Source of the DNA: Candidatus Thorarchaeota archaeon
GTDB taxonomy: Archaea > Asgardarchaeota > Thorarchaeia > Thorarchaeales > Thorarchaeaceae
NCBI GenBank assembly: GCA_046758445.1
Contig: JBHIAE010000003.1
Coordinates: 32,001-96,000, forward strand
Length of the DNA: 64,000 nucleotides
Direction of reading: 5' to 3'
Below are positions 38,435-46,136 of this stretch, one piece after another. The translations under genes were made by a program, and so were the position numbers. The notes under the pieces were generated by a model. That model searched no databases and was not told the origin of the DNA. It saw nothing but the letters and a program-made list of their open reading frames with translations. How positions within the stretch are numbered: position 1 is the stretch's first letter; every line of letters begins with the position of its first letter.

Positions 38435-39961
38435 TTGGCTAAGATGAACAGGACTCACAAGTCAGAAGAAGACTTTCGAGGAATCTCACCGGCAGAGTTC
38501 TTCTATAGAAATCGTCAGATGGCAGGCTTTGGAAATCCTACCCAGTCAGTGTACTCAACAGTCAGAGAGCTAGTTGAGAACAGCCTAGATGCCTGCGAAG
38601 ATGCTCAACAACTCCCGAGAATACGGGTCTGTATTCAGTCCCATCGATCCAATATACTCACAGTGAGTGTTTCCGACAATGGAGCAGGAGTTCCATATGC
38701 GCACGTTCCGGAGGCCTTTGGTCGAGTTCTCTATGGTAGCAAGTTCGGGCATAAACAGAAGCGTGGTACTTTTGGTCTAGGGGTCACAATGGCTATCCTC
38801 CATGGACAGATCACAACTGATGAACCTGTTTCGGTTCACACTCGAACAACGGAAGGTCCGGGTATGATCTTCCGAATTCTCATTGACGTCGAAAGAAACA
38901 CTCCCATTGTCGAAAATAAAGAAGTATTGAGAAGGAGGGAGCAAGGCACCACCGTGACTGTCAAGTTAAGAGGTGACTTGAAGCGCGCTCAGGAGAGAGT
39001 AGAGGAGTATCTTAGACTGACGACTGTGGTATCCCCGCATGCTCAGATCGCACTCGTGATCGACGATTCATCAAGCAAGGTCATGGGCGGGTTTGTCGAC
39101 ACAGTCCCTGAAATGCCAGTCCCAACTAGACCGCACCCTAGGGCCGCAGATCTGGAGCTGCTTCGCCGACTCATTGAGAGTAGCAGGCCTAAGGGGCTTC
39201 GGGACTTCTTGATTGATTCCTTTCAGCAATTGGGAACTAGAACTGCAACCCGACTCCTCGGGTTTCTAGCAATGGACCAAAGCATTCAAGTTAAGACGAT
39301 GGAACGCGAAGACATCTCTCGACTAGGTGCGGGACTTCGTAGATTCGACGGTTTTAGTAGTCCTAGTGGTAAGAGTCTGAGTCCCATCGGGAAGGATGCT
39401 TTTCTCAAGTCGGTGGCAGCTACCTTCAATACGAAAATGCTTAGCTATACACACAGTGCGACTTGTGAATGGGGCGGCAACGCCTTTGGAATTGAGGGAG
39501 TAGTGGCATTGGGTGATGATTTTCCCTCGGCAGACATACCAACGCTCTACCGATTCGCCAATCGTGTGCCTCTTCTTTATGACGCAAGCGAGGACATCCT
39601 GTCCAAGGTGCTAAGACAGGTCAACTGGTCGAGGTACGGTAGAACAGGCCCGAAACCCGTTGCATTATTCATCCACTTCTTCTCCACGAAGGTACCATAC
39701 AAGGCAGCAGGAAAGCAGGCTATCGCCCAGACATCTCAGATTGAAGAAGCGGCTCTGGCGGTCTACCGCAGACTGGGACGTTCTCTGAGCAAATCCATCA
39801 AGAAACACAATCGTTCCCTACGGGACACCAAGAGGATTAGGGAGTTCTCCGAATTGTTTCGATTGGTGGCTAAGTATGGATCAGCCCTGGCAGAATCGGA
39901 AACAGTCCCTTCTACCGCCAAGATGGTGAAGATCCTTTTCGAGGCGAGTGATGATGTCTGA
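38435..39961 (+). CDS. top6B: DNA topoisomerase VI subunit B
   Basis: ISPAEFFYRN, RELVENSLDA, DNGAG, RGTFGLG, RFANRVPL. Confidence 0.95.
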   Translation: MAKMNRTHKSEEDFRGISPAEFFYRNRQMAGFGNPTQSVYSTVRELVENSLDACEDAQQLPRIRVCIQSHRSNILTVSVSDNGAGVPYAHVPEAFGRVLYGSKFGHKQKRGTFGLGVTMAILHGQITTDEPVSVHTRTTEGPGMIFRILIDVERNTPIVENKEVLRRREQGTTVTVKLRGDLKRAQERVEEYLRLTTVVSPHAQIALVIDDSSSKVMGGFVDTVPEMPVPTRPHPRAADLELLRRLIESSRPKGLRDFLIDSFQQLGTRTATRLLGFLAMDQSIQVKTMEREDISRLGAGLRRFDGFSSPSGKSLSPIGKDAFLKSVAATFNTKMLSYTHSATCEWGGNAFGIEGVVALGDDFPSADIPTLYRFANRVPLLYDASEDILSKVLRQVNWSRYGRTGPKPVALFIHFFSTKVPYKAAGKQAIAQTSQIEEAALAVYRRLGRSLSKSIKKHNRSLRDTKRIREFSELFRLVAKYGSALAESETVPSTAKMVKILFEASDDV

Positions 39962-41003
39962 GAGAAGCGGAGTAGACATTCTAACAACTGTGGGGAGGGA
40001 GATAGTCAATGCAATCCAACGAGGCGAGTTTCCGACTCTGAATCTACCCGACAGAGGGACCACAAATATCCTCTATGACCCTAATCTCGACCAGTTCATC
40101 CTTGGGAGTTCCCAAGTGAAGCGTGACTCCAGCAATCTCAAACACGTTCGGAGTTTTGCACAACTCGTCTGGGTTGCTCATTTCGCCAAGCAGCTTCTTC
40201 AGGCAAAACGTACCAGCTCACTTCGAGACCTATACTACTCAAGTGAGGCATTTGGTGTGGAGTTCAGCAATCAGACAGAATCAGATAGAACGATCGTTGA
40301 CCTTGAGTGCTTGACTGGTCTGTCGAGGGAGGCTCTTGGCATATTTCCTGAGGAGCACTCATCGATCTTCGGAAGCATGACAATGCAGTATACCGTTCCC
40401 GGCTATGAGGGCAAACAAGTGGATCTTACAATGAGTCCAGATGGTCTACCTGTGGGCCGCGCTCTCACGACCGCTCAGCCTCTGAGAACGGATGCGGAGG
40501 TCATACTGGCCGTAGAATCAGGTGGCATGTTCTCTCGGTTGATAGAAACCATGGCATGGGAAAGATACAAAGCTGTACTGGTGCAGTTGGGAGGACAACC
40601 TCCGAGATCCACCCGGGCCCTGATGAGAAGAATCCACGAAGATCTCGGTCTTCCTGTCTTCATATTTACCGATGGAGACCCTTGGGGAATGCACATTGCA
40701 CAGGTGGTAATCAGCGGCAGCGCAAATTCCGCTCATGTAAAGGGACTGACGATTCCCTCTGCTAAATGGATTGGTGTGACTCCAAATGACATAGTTGAAC
40801 ACGCACTGCCTTCAGAACCCATGACCGATGCGGATCTCAAACGCTTGGACGAGCTAGCTCGGGATGTTCGCTATTCCAACAGAGAATGGCAGGAACACAT
40901 CAAGCAGTTTCGGCGGCTTCAAAAGAAAGCGGAGCAGCAAGCCTTCAGTAGACACGGAATGGACTACGTTGTCGACACCTATTTGTCAGACAAGCTGGCG
41001 TAA
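39948..41003 (+). CDS. top6A: DNA topoisomerase VI subunit A (Spo11 family)
   Basis: LRDLYY (catalytic Tyr), AVESGG, DGDPWG, KAEQQA. Confidence 0.95.
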   Translation: MMMSERSGVDILTTVGREIVNAIQRGEFPTLNLPDRGTTNILYDPNLDQFILGSSQVKRDSSNLKHVRSFAQLVWVAHFAKQLLQAKRTSSLRDLYYSSEAFGVEFSNQTESDRTIVDLECLTGLSREALGIFPEEHSSIFGSMTMQYTVPGYEGKQVDLTMSPDGLPVGRALTTAQPLRTDAEVILAVESGGMFSRLIETMAWERYKAVLVQLGGQPPRSTRALMRRIHEDLGLPVFIFTDGDPWGMHIAQVVISGSANSAHVKGLTIPSAKWIGVTPNDIVEHALPSEPMTDADLKRLDELARDVRYSNREWQEHIKQFRRLQKKAEQQAFSRHGMDYVVDTYLSDKLA

Positions 41004-41004
41004 T

Positions 41005-42033
41005 TCAGAGACCAAGCAGCTGAAACACCAAAAGAAGAGCAACGGCCCCATACGCAATAACCGCCTGAAGTAACACCAACAGATTCACGTTCTTCTTCTC
41101 TGTCACGTTCTTTGAGAGGTGGGGTAATATCCAGTAGATTGTGTACGGTCCCGCAACCTCCAAAGTACCGTCTTCTCTTGGTCCTGCGAACTTCCTGTAC
41201 TCACCACGGGTGCGGTTGATGCGTACCTTGTAAAAGATGTAGAGCAGAAAGTTCAGCCCGAAGGGCAGATACAGGAGGACTGCAAGTCTGTCCATATTGC
41301 CGAGTATCAATGCAGCAGCTATTGCTGCTCCCATAGGCAACCTCCCGACGTCACCCGGCAGAATCCTTGCTGGATATCTATTGAACAATAGAAACCCGAT
41401 TGATGCACCCATTAGCGCTCCGGCAACAACCCCAGCATCTACCTGGGTCTGGGGAATGGCGACACCTGCTGTGAGCGGCAGCAACACCACATACAGAACT
41501 GCTGCTGAGGAGTTTACTGCCGAGAGGCCGGCCTCTAGACCATTCATCCCTCCATACATGTTGGTAGAGTCAATGATGAACGTCATCATCAGTGGCACAA
41601 TTACAAGCGGGTAGAGAATTCCCAGGTCAACCGTGCCTAAGAAAGGGATTGACATGGTTGTCGTGCCAACTTGCATCACTATCATTGGTATTGATGCTAT
41701 CATCGGGAGGGCTATCTTGGTTCGATTCCTGAAATCTAGGCTATCGTCTAGGAGTCCTATTATCGCTGCCATTAGAATAGAAACCATTGCCGCCAAGAGT
41801 CCGGGGTTCACAATGTCTTGGGCCTGGAACGTTGTTAGCCCAATCACAATCAGAAGAGAGGTGACAATTGCGAAGAGAACCACGATGCCTCCGCCCTTTG
41901 CAACCTCTGGCCTATCCTTCTTGTGGACATCAATGCCTACAAACCCCTTCTGTTTCAGGGTTTCTATCATAGATGGAAGTACTAGCACCACGATTAGAAA
42001 CGCAAGTACTATGGCAATCAGAATAGCTAGCAA
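41005..42033 (-). CDS. aglH: UDP-GlcNAc:dolichyl-phosphate GlcNAc-1-phosphotransferase (AglH/DPAGT1, MraY family)
   Basis: GIDVHK, GLLDD, NMYGGMNGLEAG, NRYPARILPGD. Confidence 0.85.
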   Translation of the reverse strand: MLAILIAIVLAFLIVVLVLPSMIETLKQKGFVGIDVHKKDRPEVAKGGGIVVLFAIVTSLLIVIGLTTFQAQDIVNPGLLAAMVSILMAAIIGLLDDSLDFRNRTKIALPMIASIPMIVMQVGTTTMSIPFLGTVDLGILYPLVIVPLMMTFIIDSTNMYGGMNGLEAGLSAVNSSAAVLYVVLLPLTAGVAIPQTQVDAGVVAGALMGASIGFLLFNRYPARILPGDVGRLPMGAAIAAALILGNMDRLAVLLYLPFGLNFLLYIFYKVRINRTRGEYRKFAGPREDGTLEVAGPYTIYWILPHLSKNVTEKKNVNLLVLLQAVIAYGAVALLLVFQLLGL

Positions 42034-42218: not shown

Positions 42219-45215
42219 TTGAGCCTGCTGCATAGACGAATAGCGACATTCGCAATACTGGCGTTGTTTCTCGTAGGCAGTGCTATGACAGCGGTTCCAT
42301 TGGCAGCACACTGGGACTCTGAAGTGGCATACGACATAACGCAGCAGTCGACCATGGCAGATTCCACAAGCAATCTCACAGTTCCATATGTGGATAAGCA
42401 CTACGGGGCCGCTGATGGCATAATCGATCCATTTGAATATGCAATAAACTTCACGGATCCCGTGACTGGCATTACGGCCTATCTTGAACATAATGGCACC
42501 ACACTCTTCCTAGGACTATCCGCCCCTACTTCGGGTTGGATTGCAGTCGGATGGCAGAACTACACCGATAGGTTCACTGTGGCCGGGCTGAATCAGAGTG
42601 ATCTTCTATTCGGTTATGCTCCAGGTACACCGCATGAGGATTACTGGAGGGCCAGAGATGACGACGCTGGAACAGTCCACTATGTATTGACAAGCCGCAA
42701 TGGCAGTCTATTACAAGAGGGCGACTTTCCTACAGACGATATGGATGATCCATTCTCTGTAATGCCTGCACTTGCCATGTACAGAAACATGGTTCTCGCG
42801 GGCGGTGGCATGCGACTAGGTGAAGTGCGCCATTTCATCATCCCCGCCGAAGAGGCCTATGCCTTTGACCCCACACATCAACTCTATGGTCTGGATCTAG
42901 AGTACACAACTACACTAACCAGGCTAAAGAGAGGCGCATCAGTCCTAAGAAGCAATACGAGCAATCCTGCCAGATCAAGCCAGGTGGTGTTCAGCGACCA
43001 GAGAGGTGTCGGCACACTTCAACATCTCCCGGATGGTGATCAGAGTCGAATACTGTCTGCGAATGCCACTGATGACGGGGAAACGACTCAGCTTGAGTAT
43101 GTACTCCAAATGATCAGTGGAGATCCCGAGGATATATCGATTCTAAATGGTACCGACCAAGTGTATCCATTCGTATTCTTGTACAGCAACACAGAAGACT
43201 TCGGCGAGTTGCCTGTGCAGTATACTTACTGGTCTGGTCCCATAATGATGCAGTTCGAACCCAATGCTGCACCAACATTGTTGGTCGAGAGTCCAACCTC
43301 AGTAGACCCACTAGTCTGGGTGGACGAGTTCAAGGTAAATGTCACAGACAACACCTTTGTTAGAAGAGTGGACTACAGAGTTGACAATGAGAACTGGACG
43401 GAGATGGAGTTCGATTTCATATCCGGCCTTTGGGAATACCGTGTAGATCTTTCAGGCTACGCCGAGGGTCCGCACACTGTTTGGTTTAGCGGAACGGATC
43501 CGTCAAATTCGAGCAGAGTGATTTATGTCAATGTAACAATCACACGTCCATACACTCCATATCTTGGTATGAAGCTTGATGTGGAAAGAGCCTATAGGAC
43601 CGAAGGGTATCACACTGCACAGGTGAATGATCGATATACAATCACCAATAATGGTTCAGCGGCCATTGGAGCACTGGAAGTATTCCTTCCACTGGAATAC
43701 GTGTACAATGTCCTCTCCCTTACGGCAGTGGACTCTCAGGGTAATGAGATTAAGGTCACCAGACTTCAGGACCAAGGAGGCATGATGCATTGGCGACTGC
43801 ATCTCTATGAACCTGTAGACTATGGACAGACCTATGATTTCACCGCCACCATGCGAATGCACGGTCTCGATGTCATGACGGACTCAGACACCAAAGAATT
43901 CGACTTGAAGTTCTTGAAGTACCCGGTTCTTCCCTATCCGATAACCAGTGCCTCCTTTCGCCTGATCCTCAGAACAGGTGACTCTCTCGCACCAAATTAC
44001 GAAAGTCCTGATACAACAATGGACAATCTGGCTCCGTTTGCCATAGAGGAGTTCGCAACCGCTTTTCGGTCCTTCTCTCCATTCATTGTAGCAGACCGCA
44101 CTACAACTGTGACCGTTGATCCATGGGGCTGGCTATCATTTAGCGAAACCATCTGGTTGCACAATATTGGGCCATTTGGGACTCCTGAGGACAAGGTTTC
44201 CTTTATCCTGCCTGCGTATTCCACAGGGGTAAGAATCTTTGACCGAGTTGGCATTTTGGCCAAATCGCAGTTCTCTCTTTCCGGGGAGTGGAATGTTTCA
44301 AGAGTTGTTGAGATCGATCTGCTGGGTGACCGGTTCGGTGAACAGCTACGGGAAGGATACTCTTACGAGTTCAACATCGACTACTTGGTTCCAATCAGTG
44401 AATATGAGCAGCTTGCAGAAGGCGCCAATCTCTTGAAGCTACCCATGGGCAGCGTTCAGGAAATTGTTGCACTATCACACACAGTCGACCTAGTCCTGCC
44501 CTATTCTGTGGATACATTTGAGGCCTATGGCAGCTACAGGCTTCTATATGGTGTGTTTGATACGACCCTCCGATACCAGTTCGCCAACACTTCCGAGTAC
44601 AATCCGGCGGAAATCCAGATTCTCTATCGGCCATCACCAATCGTCTTTGTGCGACCTCTAGCCTTTGCTCTCATAGTGGGTCTCATTGCCCTCGCATACA
44701 TCGCCTACAAAGGAGTCGATACTGGCCTCAGGCCAGAGGACCTGGAAGATGGTGAGATGCCGACAGCTGACAAGCGGCAGGTTGGTGCACCACCCAATCT
44801 GCTCAAGGACTTTGCTAATCTCTACTCTAAGAAGACTGCCCTTAGCATGGATCTGGAAAAGCTCGAGGCCGCAAGAAGAAGAGGTAAGGTCAAGAAGAGA
44901 GAGTTCATGATACGTGAGCGTGACATAAAGTCGCAGCTTGAACAGATTGACTCTGAGCTGCCCTCACTCAAGAATGATCTTGGCGGGTACGGTACAAGGT
45001 ATAGGGACATGATCTCCCAGATCGAGCTTCAGAATGAAAGGATTGAGGGTGCCAAGGCGGGTCTTCGTCAGTTGCTCTTACGAAAGAAGAAGCAGAGAAT
45101 CAGTCGTGTGGCTTTTGAGAGGTCTCGTCAGGACTACCTGAAGACTATCCAGAAGGCCACGACAGCTATCGATCGAATCCTGCTCTCAATTCAGGAGGAA
45201 GCCGGTGAGATCTAG
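42219..45215 (+). CDS. ribophorin I-like type I membrane protein with DOMON-like, FKBP-like and Ig-like N-terminal domains
   Basis: Signal peptide; GWIAVGW..SDLLFG; TVHYVL..GMRLGEVRHFIIPAEEAY; Ig-like VDYRVD..GPHTVWF; RTTTVTVDPWGWLSFSETI; one TM; basic coiled-coil tail. Confidence 0.72.
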   Translation: MSLLHRRIATFAILALFLVGSAMTAVPLAAHWDSEVAYDITQQSTMADSTSNLTVPYVDKHYGAADGIIDPFEYAINFTDPVTGITAYLEHNGTTLFLGLSAPTSGWIAVGWQNYTDRFTVAGLNQSDLLFGYAPGTPHEDYWRARDDDAGTVHYVLTSRNGSLLQEGDFPTDDMDDPFSVMPALAMYRNMVLAGGGMRLGEVRHFIIPAEEAYAFDPTHQLYGLDLEYTTTLTRLKRGASVLRSNTSNPARSSQVVFSDQRGVGTLQHLPDGDQSRILSANATDDGETTQLEYVLQMISGDPEDISILNGTDQVYPFVFLYSNTEDFGELPVQYTYWSGPIMMQFEPNAAPTLLVESPTSVDPLVWVDEFKVNVTDNTFVRRVDYRVDNENWTEMEFDFISGLWEYRVDLSGYAEGPHTVWFSGTDPSNSSRVIYVNVTITRPYTPYLGMKLDVERAYRTEGYHTAQVNDRYTITNNGSAAIGALEVFLPLEYVYNVLSLTAVDSQGNEIKVTRLQDQGGMMHWRLHLYEPVDYGQTYDFTATMRMHGLDVMTDSDTKEFDLKFLKYPVLPYPITSASFRLILRTGDSLAPNYESPDTTMDNLAPFAIEEFATAFRSFSPFIVADRTTTVTVDPWGWLSFSETIWLHNIGPFGTPEDKVSFILPAYSTGVRIFDRVGILAKSQFSLSGEWNVSRVVEIDLLGDRFGEQLREGYSYEFNIDYLVPISEYEQLAEGANLLKLPMGSVQEIVALSHTVDLVLPYSVDTFEAYGSYRLLYGVFDTTLRYQFANTSEYNPAEIQILYRPSPIVFVRPLAFALIVGLIALAYIAYKGVDTGLRPEDLEDGEMPTADKRQVGAPPNLLKDFANLYSKKTALSMDLEKLEAARRRGKVKKREFMIRERDIKSQLEQIDSELPSLKNDLGGYGTRYRDMISQIELQNERIEGAKAGLRQLLLRKKKQRISRVAFERSRQDYLKTIQKATTAIDRILLSIQEEAGEI

Positions 45216-45260: not shown

Positions 45261-46136
45261 GTGAATTTCCCCCTTGGGGGCGTAGATATGAATAAGTTCC
45301 TGAATCGTGATGAAGTCAGCGCTCGTGATTTGCTCAGCCCCAATACGAAGGCACTGCAGATGTATCAGTATCTTGCAGGGTCTCCGAAGGTGCAGTCTTA
45401 TCTCCGAACAGCGAATAGGATGGCGGTTTCTAGGCTTGGCTATACTGATCATGGGCCGGTACATGCCGAGGTGGCGACTTGGAACGCCCTAAGGATATTC
45501 GACATCTTGGATGAAACATTTCAACCCAACGTAGTTGCTGAAGGCATCGGTGATACAGATGACGCTCGCCTTGTCGTATTAGCCTCCACGTACATCCACG
45601 ACATGGGCATGGTGGTCCATAGGAACGAGCATCCGCAGGCCTCATTGGCATTGGCCATCCCGATATTAGAGCCAAAGCTGACCGAGATCTATGATGACCC
45701 CGCCAAGGCAACTGACATCATGAGCTTCATTCTCCATGGAATCTATGCCCATGATGATGACACGCAGTGTTTAACTTTTGAGGCGGGAATCACAAAGCTT
45801 GGCGACGGATGTGACCTCACCAAGGGTCGAACGATTATTCCATTCCAGAAGGGCAAGGTCGACATACACTCTGTTAGCGCCATGGCTATCCACGAGATAA
45901 TCCTCGAAAAGGGAGAAGACACTCCGCTTAGGATAACGGTTGCAATGGATAACCCAGCAGGAGTCTTCCAAGTTCAGGCAGTTCTGGAGAAGAAGATATC
46001 GACTTCAGGACTAAGAGACCACATCGGCATCGATGTTCTGGTAAATGGCAGTCGTCTTGTGCTGACTCAAGTCAAAAGACTGTTCAGAGTCCATCTTGAA
46101 GACTCGCCTGATGCGATCAGCGTGAAGGAGAAGTAG
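45261..46136 (+). CDS. HD-domain phosphohydrolase
   Basis: RLGYTDHGPVHA, YIHDMG, AHD, GDGCD.TKGR. Confidence 0.88.
   Translation: MNFPLGGVDMNKFLNRDEVSARDLLSPNTKALQMYQYLAGSPKVQSYLRTANRMAVSRLGYTDHGPVHAEVATWNALRIFDILDETFQPNVVAEGIGDTDDARLVVLASTYIHDMGMVVHRNEHPQASLALAIPILEPKLTEIYDDPAKATDIMSFILHGIYAHDDDTQCLTFEAGITKLGDGCDLTKGRTIIPFQKGKVDIHSVSAMAIHEIILEKGEDTPLRITVAMDNPAGVFQVQAVLEKKISTSGLRDHIGIDVLVNGSRLVLTQVKRLFRVHLEDSPDAISVKEK

Follow-up and report, generated by a model that had tools for sequence, protein, structure and literature searches.

The window analyzed here covers 64,000 nucleotides of a Candidatus Thorarchaeota archaeon (contig JBHIAE010000003.1, positions 32,001 to 96,000 of the forward strand; assembly GCA_046758445.1). 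On its plus strand, at 42219..45215, it carries a gene for a long-form OST1/ribophorin I of 998 amino acids (aa). In eukaryotes, this protein is a noncatalytic subunit that holds the oligosaccharyltransferase (OST) beside the Sec61 channel and the ribosome. Ahead of its ribophorin part, the archaeal protein has a head in which an FKBP domain lies inside a DOMON β-sandwich and an Ig-like domain follows. We regard the OST1 orthology and the nested architecture of the gene as practically certain.

The extent of the gene is given by its open reading frame, its conserved N terminus, and its full-length relatives. The TTG start is right, because the relatives open at this start with an identical motif, MSLLHRRIAT. 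A word-indexed search gave 220 relatives; the 120 that were listed are 932 to 1,001 aa long, cover 95 to 100% of the query, and share 48 to 86% identity with it, and among these listed matches nearly all that bear a name come from metagenome-assembled genomes labelled Thorarchaeota. An exhaustive phmmer search of 1.84 billion representatives returned 388 matches, which include, besides the long relatives, a large set of proteins of mostly 540 to 630 aa that align only to aa ~450 to 995.

Hydropathy has only two peaks, at aa ~1 to 30 (windows above 1.6 at aa 1 to 31) and at aa ~805 to 834. The first region (42219..42308, plus strand, aa 1 to 30) has basic residues ahead of a hydrophobic run, both kept in the relatives, and is predicted to be a signal peptide or anchor. 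The second contains the single transmembrane (TM) helix (44640..44711, plus strand, aa 808 to 831). The protein thus has the layout of a type I membrane protein, in which a signal at the N terminus, the ectodomain, a single TM helix, and a cytosolic C terminus follow one another. All 16 N-x-S/T sequons are located in the ectodomain, N terminal of the TM helix; 13 of the positions recur in 60% or more of 26 relatives, with three of them invariant. Three conserved sequons (N92, N114, and N125) lie in the N-terminal half of the DOMON domain. By segment, the mean pairwise identity is 0.77 for the tail, 0.67 for the N-terminal DOMON half, 0.57 for the FKBP domain, and 0.46 for the ribophorin ectodomain; the long-form fusion is under purifying selection.

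The initial annotation of the window, made from the letters alone, had read a signal peptide, a DOMON domain in two halves with an FKBP-like insert at aa ~143 to 237, an Ig-like domain, a ribophorin I-like ectodomain at aa ~450 to 805, one TM segment, and a basic cytosolic coiled coil. All of these hold up in what follows, with slightly shifted boundaries, except the last.

The ribophorin part and the cytosolic tail

The ribophorin I/OST1 extracytoplasmic domain (43554..44639, plus strand, aa 446 to 807) is built from two β-sandwiches. A profile of aa 440 to 832 with 67 homologues (profile A3) matched human RPN1 (6S7O_E) with an E value of 6.6e-33 over RPN1 residues 32 to 457, through the end of the TM helix. 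The AlphaFold2 model of this part, with a pLDDT of 93.9, has a helix at aa 808 to 831 (model residues 369 to 392), and the TM helix aligns to that of RPN1. When the model was searched with Foldseek, a comparison against RPN1/Ost1 that the initial annotation had named as informative, the best eight matches were human RPN1 and yeast Ost1 (E values of 2.4e-23 to 3.9e-17, TM-scores of 0.67 to 0.74). The ninth was an integrin (E value of 1.5e-8, TM-score of 0.25), and a gap of 15 orders of magnitude separates RPN1/Ost1 from this next fold. The Ribophorin_I family (PF04597) is matched by 11 of 26 close relatives, at best with 4e-08, and by the short proteins aligning to aa 450 to 995 at up to 2.7e-33. 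By homology and by these models, the gene is the Thorarchaeota orthologue of OST1/ribophorin I and encodes a type I membrane protein. Eukaryotic RPN1 and Ost1 (6S7O and 8B6L; 6EZN and 7OCI) have the same two-sandwich lumenal domain and TM helix at 13 to 18% identity, and no FKBP or DOMON domain is found on any of them among the matches. RPN1 resides in the endoplasmic reticulum (ER), whereas the Thorarchaeota protein is presumably in the cell membrane.

The cytosolic C-terminal domain (44778..45212, plus strand, aa 854 to 998) is the most conserved segment of the protein and is common to the short Asgard OST1 proteins as well. A profile search (profile A1) matched it to the cytoplasmic domain of MK-D1 OST1 (8whn_A) with an E value of 4.2e-7 over 144 residues, which excludes a generic coiled coil. 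The MK-D1 domain (8WHN), from the Lokiarchaeal "Ca. Prometheoarchaeum syntrophicum," folds as a bundle of four helices whose topology is that of its counterpart in human RPN1, and human ribosomes were pulled down with it in vitro (PMC11417166); metazoan RPN1, like Asgard OST1, has a cytosolic ribosome-binding helical bundle (PMC11417166). The tail of the long form is homologous to this bundle of Asgard OST1. The initial annotation had suggested a ribosome-contacting tail; homology to a domain that pulled down ribosomes lends indirect support to the predicted contact. MK-D1 OST1 as a whole is a short form (607 aa; PMC11417166), with ectodomain, TM helix, and four-helix tail homologous to those of the long form.

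The DOMON, FKBP, and Ig-like domains of the head

The model of aa 45 to 445 has a pLDDT of 92.3 and a pTM of 0.85. It was compared with 48,161 chains by VIA-align, and the matches fell into three families (DOMON, FKBP, and Ig-like) whose residue ranges separated the head into these three domains; Foldseek on the three-domain model gave mostly generic Ig and adhesin matches.

The DOMON β-sandwich is in two pieces, an N-terminal half at 42366..42635 (plus strand, aa 50 to 139), seen by VIA-align and phmmer, and a C-terminal half at 42942..43265 (plus strand, aa 242 to 349), seen by split alignment, with the structural matches ending at model residues 304 to 306. The closest members of the DOMON superfamily by VIA-align are EbdC (2IVF_C, Z score of 15.7), NxrC (7b04_C, 15.0), and the DBH DOMON domain (4zel_B, 13.6), followed by the CDH cytochrome domain (12.3), CBM9 (12.0), and the PDH cytochrome domain (about 12). 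Such matches span model residues ~5 to 306, yet only 140 to 173 residues are aligned. In the ESM Atlas, the top match of the head was a cluster that is 100% PF03351 (DOMON), with 163 residues superimposed at 1.8 Å. By phmmer, the PF03351 proteins matched are P0164, P0209, P0257, and P0268, and PF03351 is matched directly by 2 of the 26 relatives, so few because the domain is split. P0268, an uninterrupted DOMON protein, aligns to aa 54 to 113 and aa 253 to 325 of the query; between the two aligned pieces there are 19 residues in P0268 versus ~140 in the query. At the level of sequence, this split alignment proves the insertion of the FKBP domain into the DOMON domain. With other members of the superfamily (PF03351; DBH, CDH, EbdC, and CBM9), the Thorarchaeota domain shares the sandwich fold and the N-terminal motifs DG.ID..EY and GW.a.G; it differs from them in being broken by an insertion of ~115 aa with an entire FKBP. 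No other protein with an FKBP-bearing DOMON insertion was found by phmmer among the 1.84 billion representatives, and none of the clusters returned from the ESM Atlas has an FKBP nested in a DOMON.

The FKBP domain within the DOMON loop lies at 42636..42941 (plus strand, aa 140 to 241, model residues 96 to 197). By VIA-align, this segment matched SlyD (3CGM, Z score of 11.8, 85 aa at 1.8 Å), FKBP13 (4nnr, 11.2, 93 aa at 2.3 Å), and FKBP2 (11.0). A profile built from 69 sequences of the insert (profile A4) matched FKBPs in the PDB, namely, wheat FKBP73 (5.9e-16), human FKBP2 over its full length (1.2e-8), and an archaeal FKBP (1.6e-8). The FKBP_C family (PF00254) is found in 23 of the 26 relatives, at best with 4.7e-11. 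From relatives, profile, and model, both the FKBP fold and the FKBP_C family membership of the insert hold.

We read the ligand pocket from the HMMER alignment to FKBP2 and from the conservation list over the 69 sequences. The pocket equivalents Y155, L185, Y188, Y214, and Y229 are each at least 90% conserved; we take them to correspond, in order, to Y26, I56, W59, Y82, and F99 of FKBP12, and they are thus identical or conservative substitutions. The pocket seems to be under selection, in a noncanonical form, and activity is a plausible prediction from it. The alignments of FKBP11, FKBP12, AtFKBP13, and FKBP51 start at model residues 14 to 18, in the N-terminal DOMON segment (residues 14 to 25, i.e., aa 58 to 69), and in the model this segment may complete the FKBP sheet.

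The Ig-like domain (43266..43553, plus strand, aa 350 to 445) was matched by Pfam Big_7 with E values of 0.001 to 0.007 in this protein and down to 5.8e-11 in relatives. Its VIA-align matches, on model residues 306 to 400 (aa 350 to 444), have Z scores of 10 to 13.6.

Distribution and neighboring genes

We ran the family profile on 300 other genomes of the phylum. Of the 76 genomes in the window's family, 74 gave full-length matches (profile positions 1 to 991, reading frames of 981 to 1,034 aa), as did the one genome of the sister family, which makes 75 of 77 for the order. In every other Asgard family sampled, the match is limited to positions ~441 to 989, in frames of ~540 to 755 aa, mostly 566 to 640 aa. 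The short Asgard OST1 proteins of 566 to 630 aa align to aa ~441 to 995 of the long form; their ribophorin ectodomain comes straight after the signal peptide, and the DOMON(FKBP)-Ig head of ~400 aa was found only in the window's order. Among named species representatives, the head occurs almost exclusively in those called "Candidatus Thorarchaeota archaeon," SMTZ1-45 and AB_25 among them.

Since only one Asgard order has the fusion, the head is a derived feature of that lineage, located at the cell membrane. The survey across Asgard archaea that the initial annotation had named does not favor the "proto-ER" hub that the same annotation had proposed. That label went too far: the short OST1 of other Asgard families lacks the fusion, and the order placed nearest to eukaryotes is not Thorarchaeota (PMC10307638). 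For the same reason, the arrangement has no direct bearing on the origin of the ER.

The expectation that the architecture had gone undescribed is in agreement with the literature that we searched, in which no paper connects archaeal ribophorin to FKBP or DOMON or describes the arrangement, and Asgard OST1 is mentioned only generally. Public databases already contain the combination of domains implicitly. Precomputed Pfam matches to PF00254, PF04597, and PF17957 coincide on the same public proteins, and the relatives are named "FKBP-type peptidyl-prolyl cis-trans isomerase" (many of them, at NCBI), "Ig-like domain-containing," or "hypothetical."

The window gene is the only strong OST1 homologue in its own genome, which is 92.7% complete. 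Some Thorarchaeota genomes also carry paralogues of 567 to 598 aa (P0128, P0132, and P0133; L072 and L073). In P0128, P0132, and P0133, the DOMON(FKBP)-Ig head is joined to a further Ig-like domain and a TM anchor with a short basic tail, and the RPN1 part is absent. The paralogues without the RPN1 part do not have the GT4 and HD gene neighbors of OST1 described below. In a midpoint-rooted FastTree phylogeny of the head, they branch between P0125, a divergent long form, and the main clade of long forms; the tree has no outgroup and so does not settle the order of domain gain or loss. A 364-aa protein of the window's genome (L003:1276-2370, equal to G000:C1 ~174697-175791) contains one sandwich distantly like the first ribophorin sandwich (hhalign probability of 92%, E value of 6.4e-7, 146 columns, NNGS motif included), and is perhaps a distant paralogue of the N-terminal sandwich of OST1.

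Divergently upstream of the gene, at a distance of 185 bp, is a Glycos_transf_4 (GT4) gene (41005..42033, minus strand; PF00953, E value of 2.3e-28) for an AglH/Alg7-like GlcNAc-1-P transferase. Enzymes of this type catalyze the first step of the dolichol pathway. This divergent placement of the GT4 gene recurs in 72 of 75 Thorarchaeota loci, and in the remaining three the contig ends too early to show it; the placement is also kept in a 32%-identical relative. Directly upstream of it are the genes for topoisomerase VI B and A (window 38435-41003, plus strand), and the order KH protein, TopoVI-B, TopoVI-A, GT4, OST1 is kept across Thorarchaeota loci.

Downstream, at 45261..46136 (plus strand), is a gene for a soluble protein of 291 aa, probably with an HD domain. 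It had no match in the Pfam search; phmmer gave a weak match to the HD protein 2O6I (E value of 0.021), and an H..HD-like motif is present. The gene is directly 3' of OST1 in 63 of 75 loci, with 61 to 95% identity, and the other loci are truncated. The protein is far more conserved across Thorarchaeota than OST1 is. As a soluble HD-like protein, it is ruled out as an OST subunit. In a metagenome-assembled genome named "Asgardarchaeia," a short OST1 gene is likewise followed by an HD gene (PF01966, weak), and the OST1-HD pairing is thus older than the head.

The genes for STT3/AglB (G000:C20:7761-8990, minus strand, a frame of 927 aa; PF02516, E value of 1.4e-51) and for an Ost3/6-like protein (G000:C20:13026-13346, minus strand, a frame of 190 aa; E value of 8.5e-10) share a strand and are separated by ~4 kb; they do not lie near the OST1 gene.

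Possible role of the head

OST1/ribophorin I is a eukaryotic signature protein of Asgard archaea. Through the order-wide fusion, OST1 carries a foldase-type domain together with a ligand-binding sandwich at its outer end, which hints that the archaeal subunit works on emerging substrates, beyond a scaffold role. In the mechanism that we propose, the tail would dock translating ribosomes, and the TM helix and ectodomain would be positioned at the cell membrane next to AglB/STT3 and Ost3/6; both placements are predicted by homology. The head would project outward, over the exit of nascent, freshly glycosylated chains. There, the FKBP domain would act as a prolyl isomerase or holdase or offer a docking site for proline-containing peptides, and the DOMON domain would bind a ligand, with a glycan likelier than heme. 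Folding help would thereby be tied physically to secretion and N-glycosylation.

Taken as a whole, the locus is best explained by an OST1 orthologue with a head that acts on emerging chains, and we hold this explanation with moderate confidence. The functional reading of the head is more tentative, with the chances slightly below even. Its likeliest role, we infer, is that of an isomerase or holdase on emerging chains combined with ligand binding by the DOMON domain. The head is not a passive spacer, because it is more conserved than the ribophorin domain. In the DOMON domain, W107, W112, W338, and many acidic residues are conserved and could suit a sugar or Ca site.

Several points weigh against this explanation. 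That the protein assembles into an OST or translocon complex is an assumption based on homology, and AglB and Ost3/6 are encoded on another contig, which means that there is no operon link with OST1. The FKBP_C and Ribophorin_I assignments rest on family profiles and models. With the protein alone, PF04597 gave no match even at E values up to 10; we attribute this to divergence past the reach of a single-sequence hidden Markov model search, with the domain itself present. A PF04597 search of the whole genome likewise found nothing, this gene included, and was uninformative since the controls were unmatched too. Pfam and NCBIfam searches of the protein alone gave sub-threshold FKBP_C and Big_7 matches, plus chance coiled-coil matches. 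The FKBP_C score was 13.5 to 15.8 bits, below the cutoff of 21.1, and is lowered further by three extra residues that precede GMRLGE in the FKBP domain of the window's subclade.

The FKBP pocket itself also departs from the canonical form. In the HMMER alignment to FKBP2, F36 of FKBP12 is replaced by L and D37 by Q, and the F46-F48 region is an unalignable acidic loop without a modelled strand (46 to 49). With these two residues replaced and the strand missing, catalysis may be feeble or absent. At the translocon, human FKBP11 is apparently a noncatalytic adaptor (PMC12804085): CCDC134 buries its ligand site, and the study argues against a role as isomerase. The same observations favor the main rival, a head that is noncatalytic on the same OST1 orthologue, with the FKBP pocket as a fixed protein-protein docking site and the DOMON and Ig-like domains as scaffold or spacer. 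Such a head would bring in a partner, as FKBP11 does with CCDC134 at OST-A, or give the pseudo-periplasmic space its shape, and the FKBP alignments that begin within the DOMON segment hint at the tight DOMON-FKBP packing that would go with it. However, the strong conservation of the five aromatic or aliphatic pocket residues counts against it, and apart from GT4 and the cytosolic HD protein, no conserved partner gene adjoins the locus. Many catalytically modest FKBPs are, moreover, still chaperones. We consider a noncatalytic head somewhat unlikely.

A redox function would follow if the DOMON domain were of the heme b cytochrome type, which would make the head an extracytoplasmic redox module on OST1 instead of a lectin or foldase unit. 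The best structural matches, EbdC and NxrC, and the CDH and PDH cytochrome domains are indeed heme-binding relatives of DOMON. However, the non-heme DBH DOMON and the sugar-binding CBM9 match about equally well, and no Met is conserved in either DOMON half in the invariant lists of the relatives. In related uninterrupted DOMON domains there is a "GMN" motif, whose Met we presume to be a heme ligand; in the long OST1, Leu124 replaces this Met, directly before an invariant N125-x-S127 sequon. We regard a heme module as very improbable; the replacement also counts against the reading that we prefer.

That the protein is a stand-alone surface glycoprotein reusing the ribophorin fold outside the OST and translocon would suit the distant AglB gene and the RPN1-less paralogues P0128, P0132, and P0133, which bear the same head on a plain TM anchor, but we give it next to no weight, given that no other strong OST1 homologue was found in the genome, that its most conserved segment is the tail found in short Asgard OST1 and 8WHN, and that its AglH-like neighbor is conserved.

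For an OST1 with a head acting on emerging chains, the nearest parallels are found at the eukaryotic ER. FKBP11 binds the OST-A secretory translocon (PDB 9N9J/9YGY; PMC12804085). In both cases, an exoplasmic FKBP would be near OST on a membrane protein with a basic, ribosome-contacting cytosolic C terminus (PMC12804085). FKBP11 is, in contrast, a separate small protein, with substrate-responsive recruitment and a pocket buried by its partner, whereas the Thorarchaeota FKBP is a covalent part of OST1, nested in the DOMON domain. The likeness appears to be one of design, without a sign of common descent of the arrangement. Malectin is reported to bind ribophorin I in animal and plant ER quality control (PMC9144812), and there, too, a carbohydrate-binding β-sandwich is coupled physically to ribophorin I. 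Malectin is a separate protein of another fold family, and glycan binding by the Thorarchaeota DOMON domain is putative. The head is at best analogous, not ancestral, to the malectin-RPN1 and FKBP11-OST-A associations, and would be a natural parallel to both.

SlyD and the archaeal FKBPs with an insert-in-flap (IF) domain (3CGM and 3PRB) share the FKBP core with the Thorarchaeota insert, whose SlyD match is the Thermus thermophilus protein, and likewise combine a foldase with a second binding domain by insertion. The direction is reversed: in SlyD, a chaperone domain is inserted in the FKBP, whereas in the Thorarchaeota protein the DOMON is the host and the inserted FKBP is short and has no IF domain. 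SlyD is cytosolic, and the Thorarchaeota FKBP is extracytoplasmic.

In a bolder version, which we rate as unlikely, Thorarchaeota would have independently built a one-chain station, in which OST1 docks the ribosome and AglB, the DOMON domain reads the new N-glycan, and the FKBP domain isomerizes or holds the chain. If true, this station would be a covalent archaeal counterpart of the malectin-RPN1 and FKBP11-OST-A associations, and folding quality control coupled to N-glycosylation would have arisen outside eukaryotes, at a plasma-membrane translocon. The head is expressible as a soluble fragment of ~400 aa.

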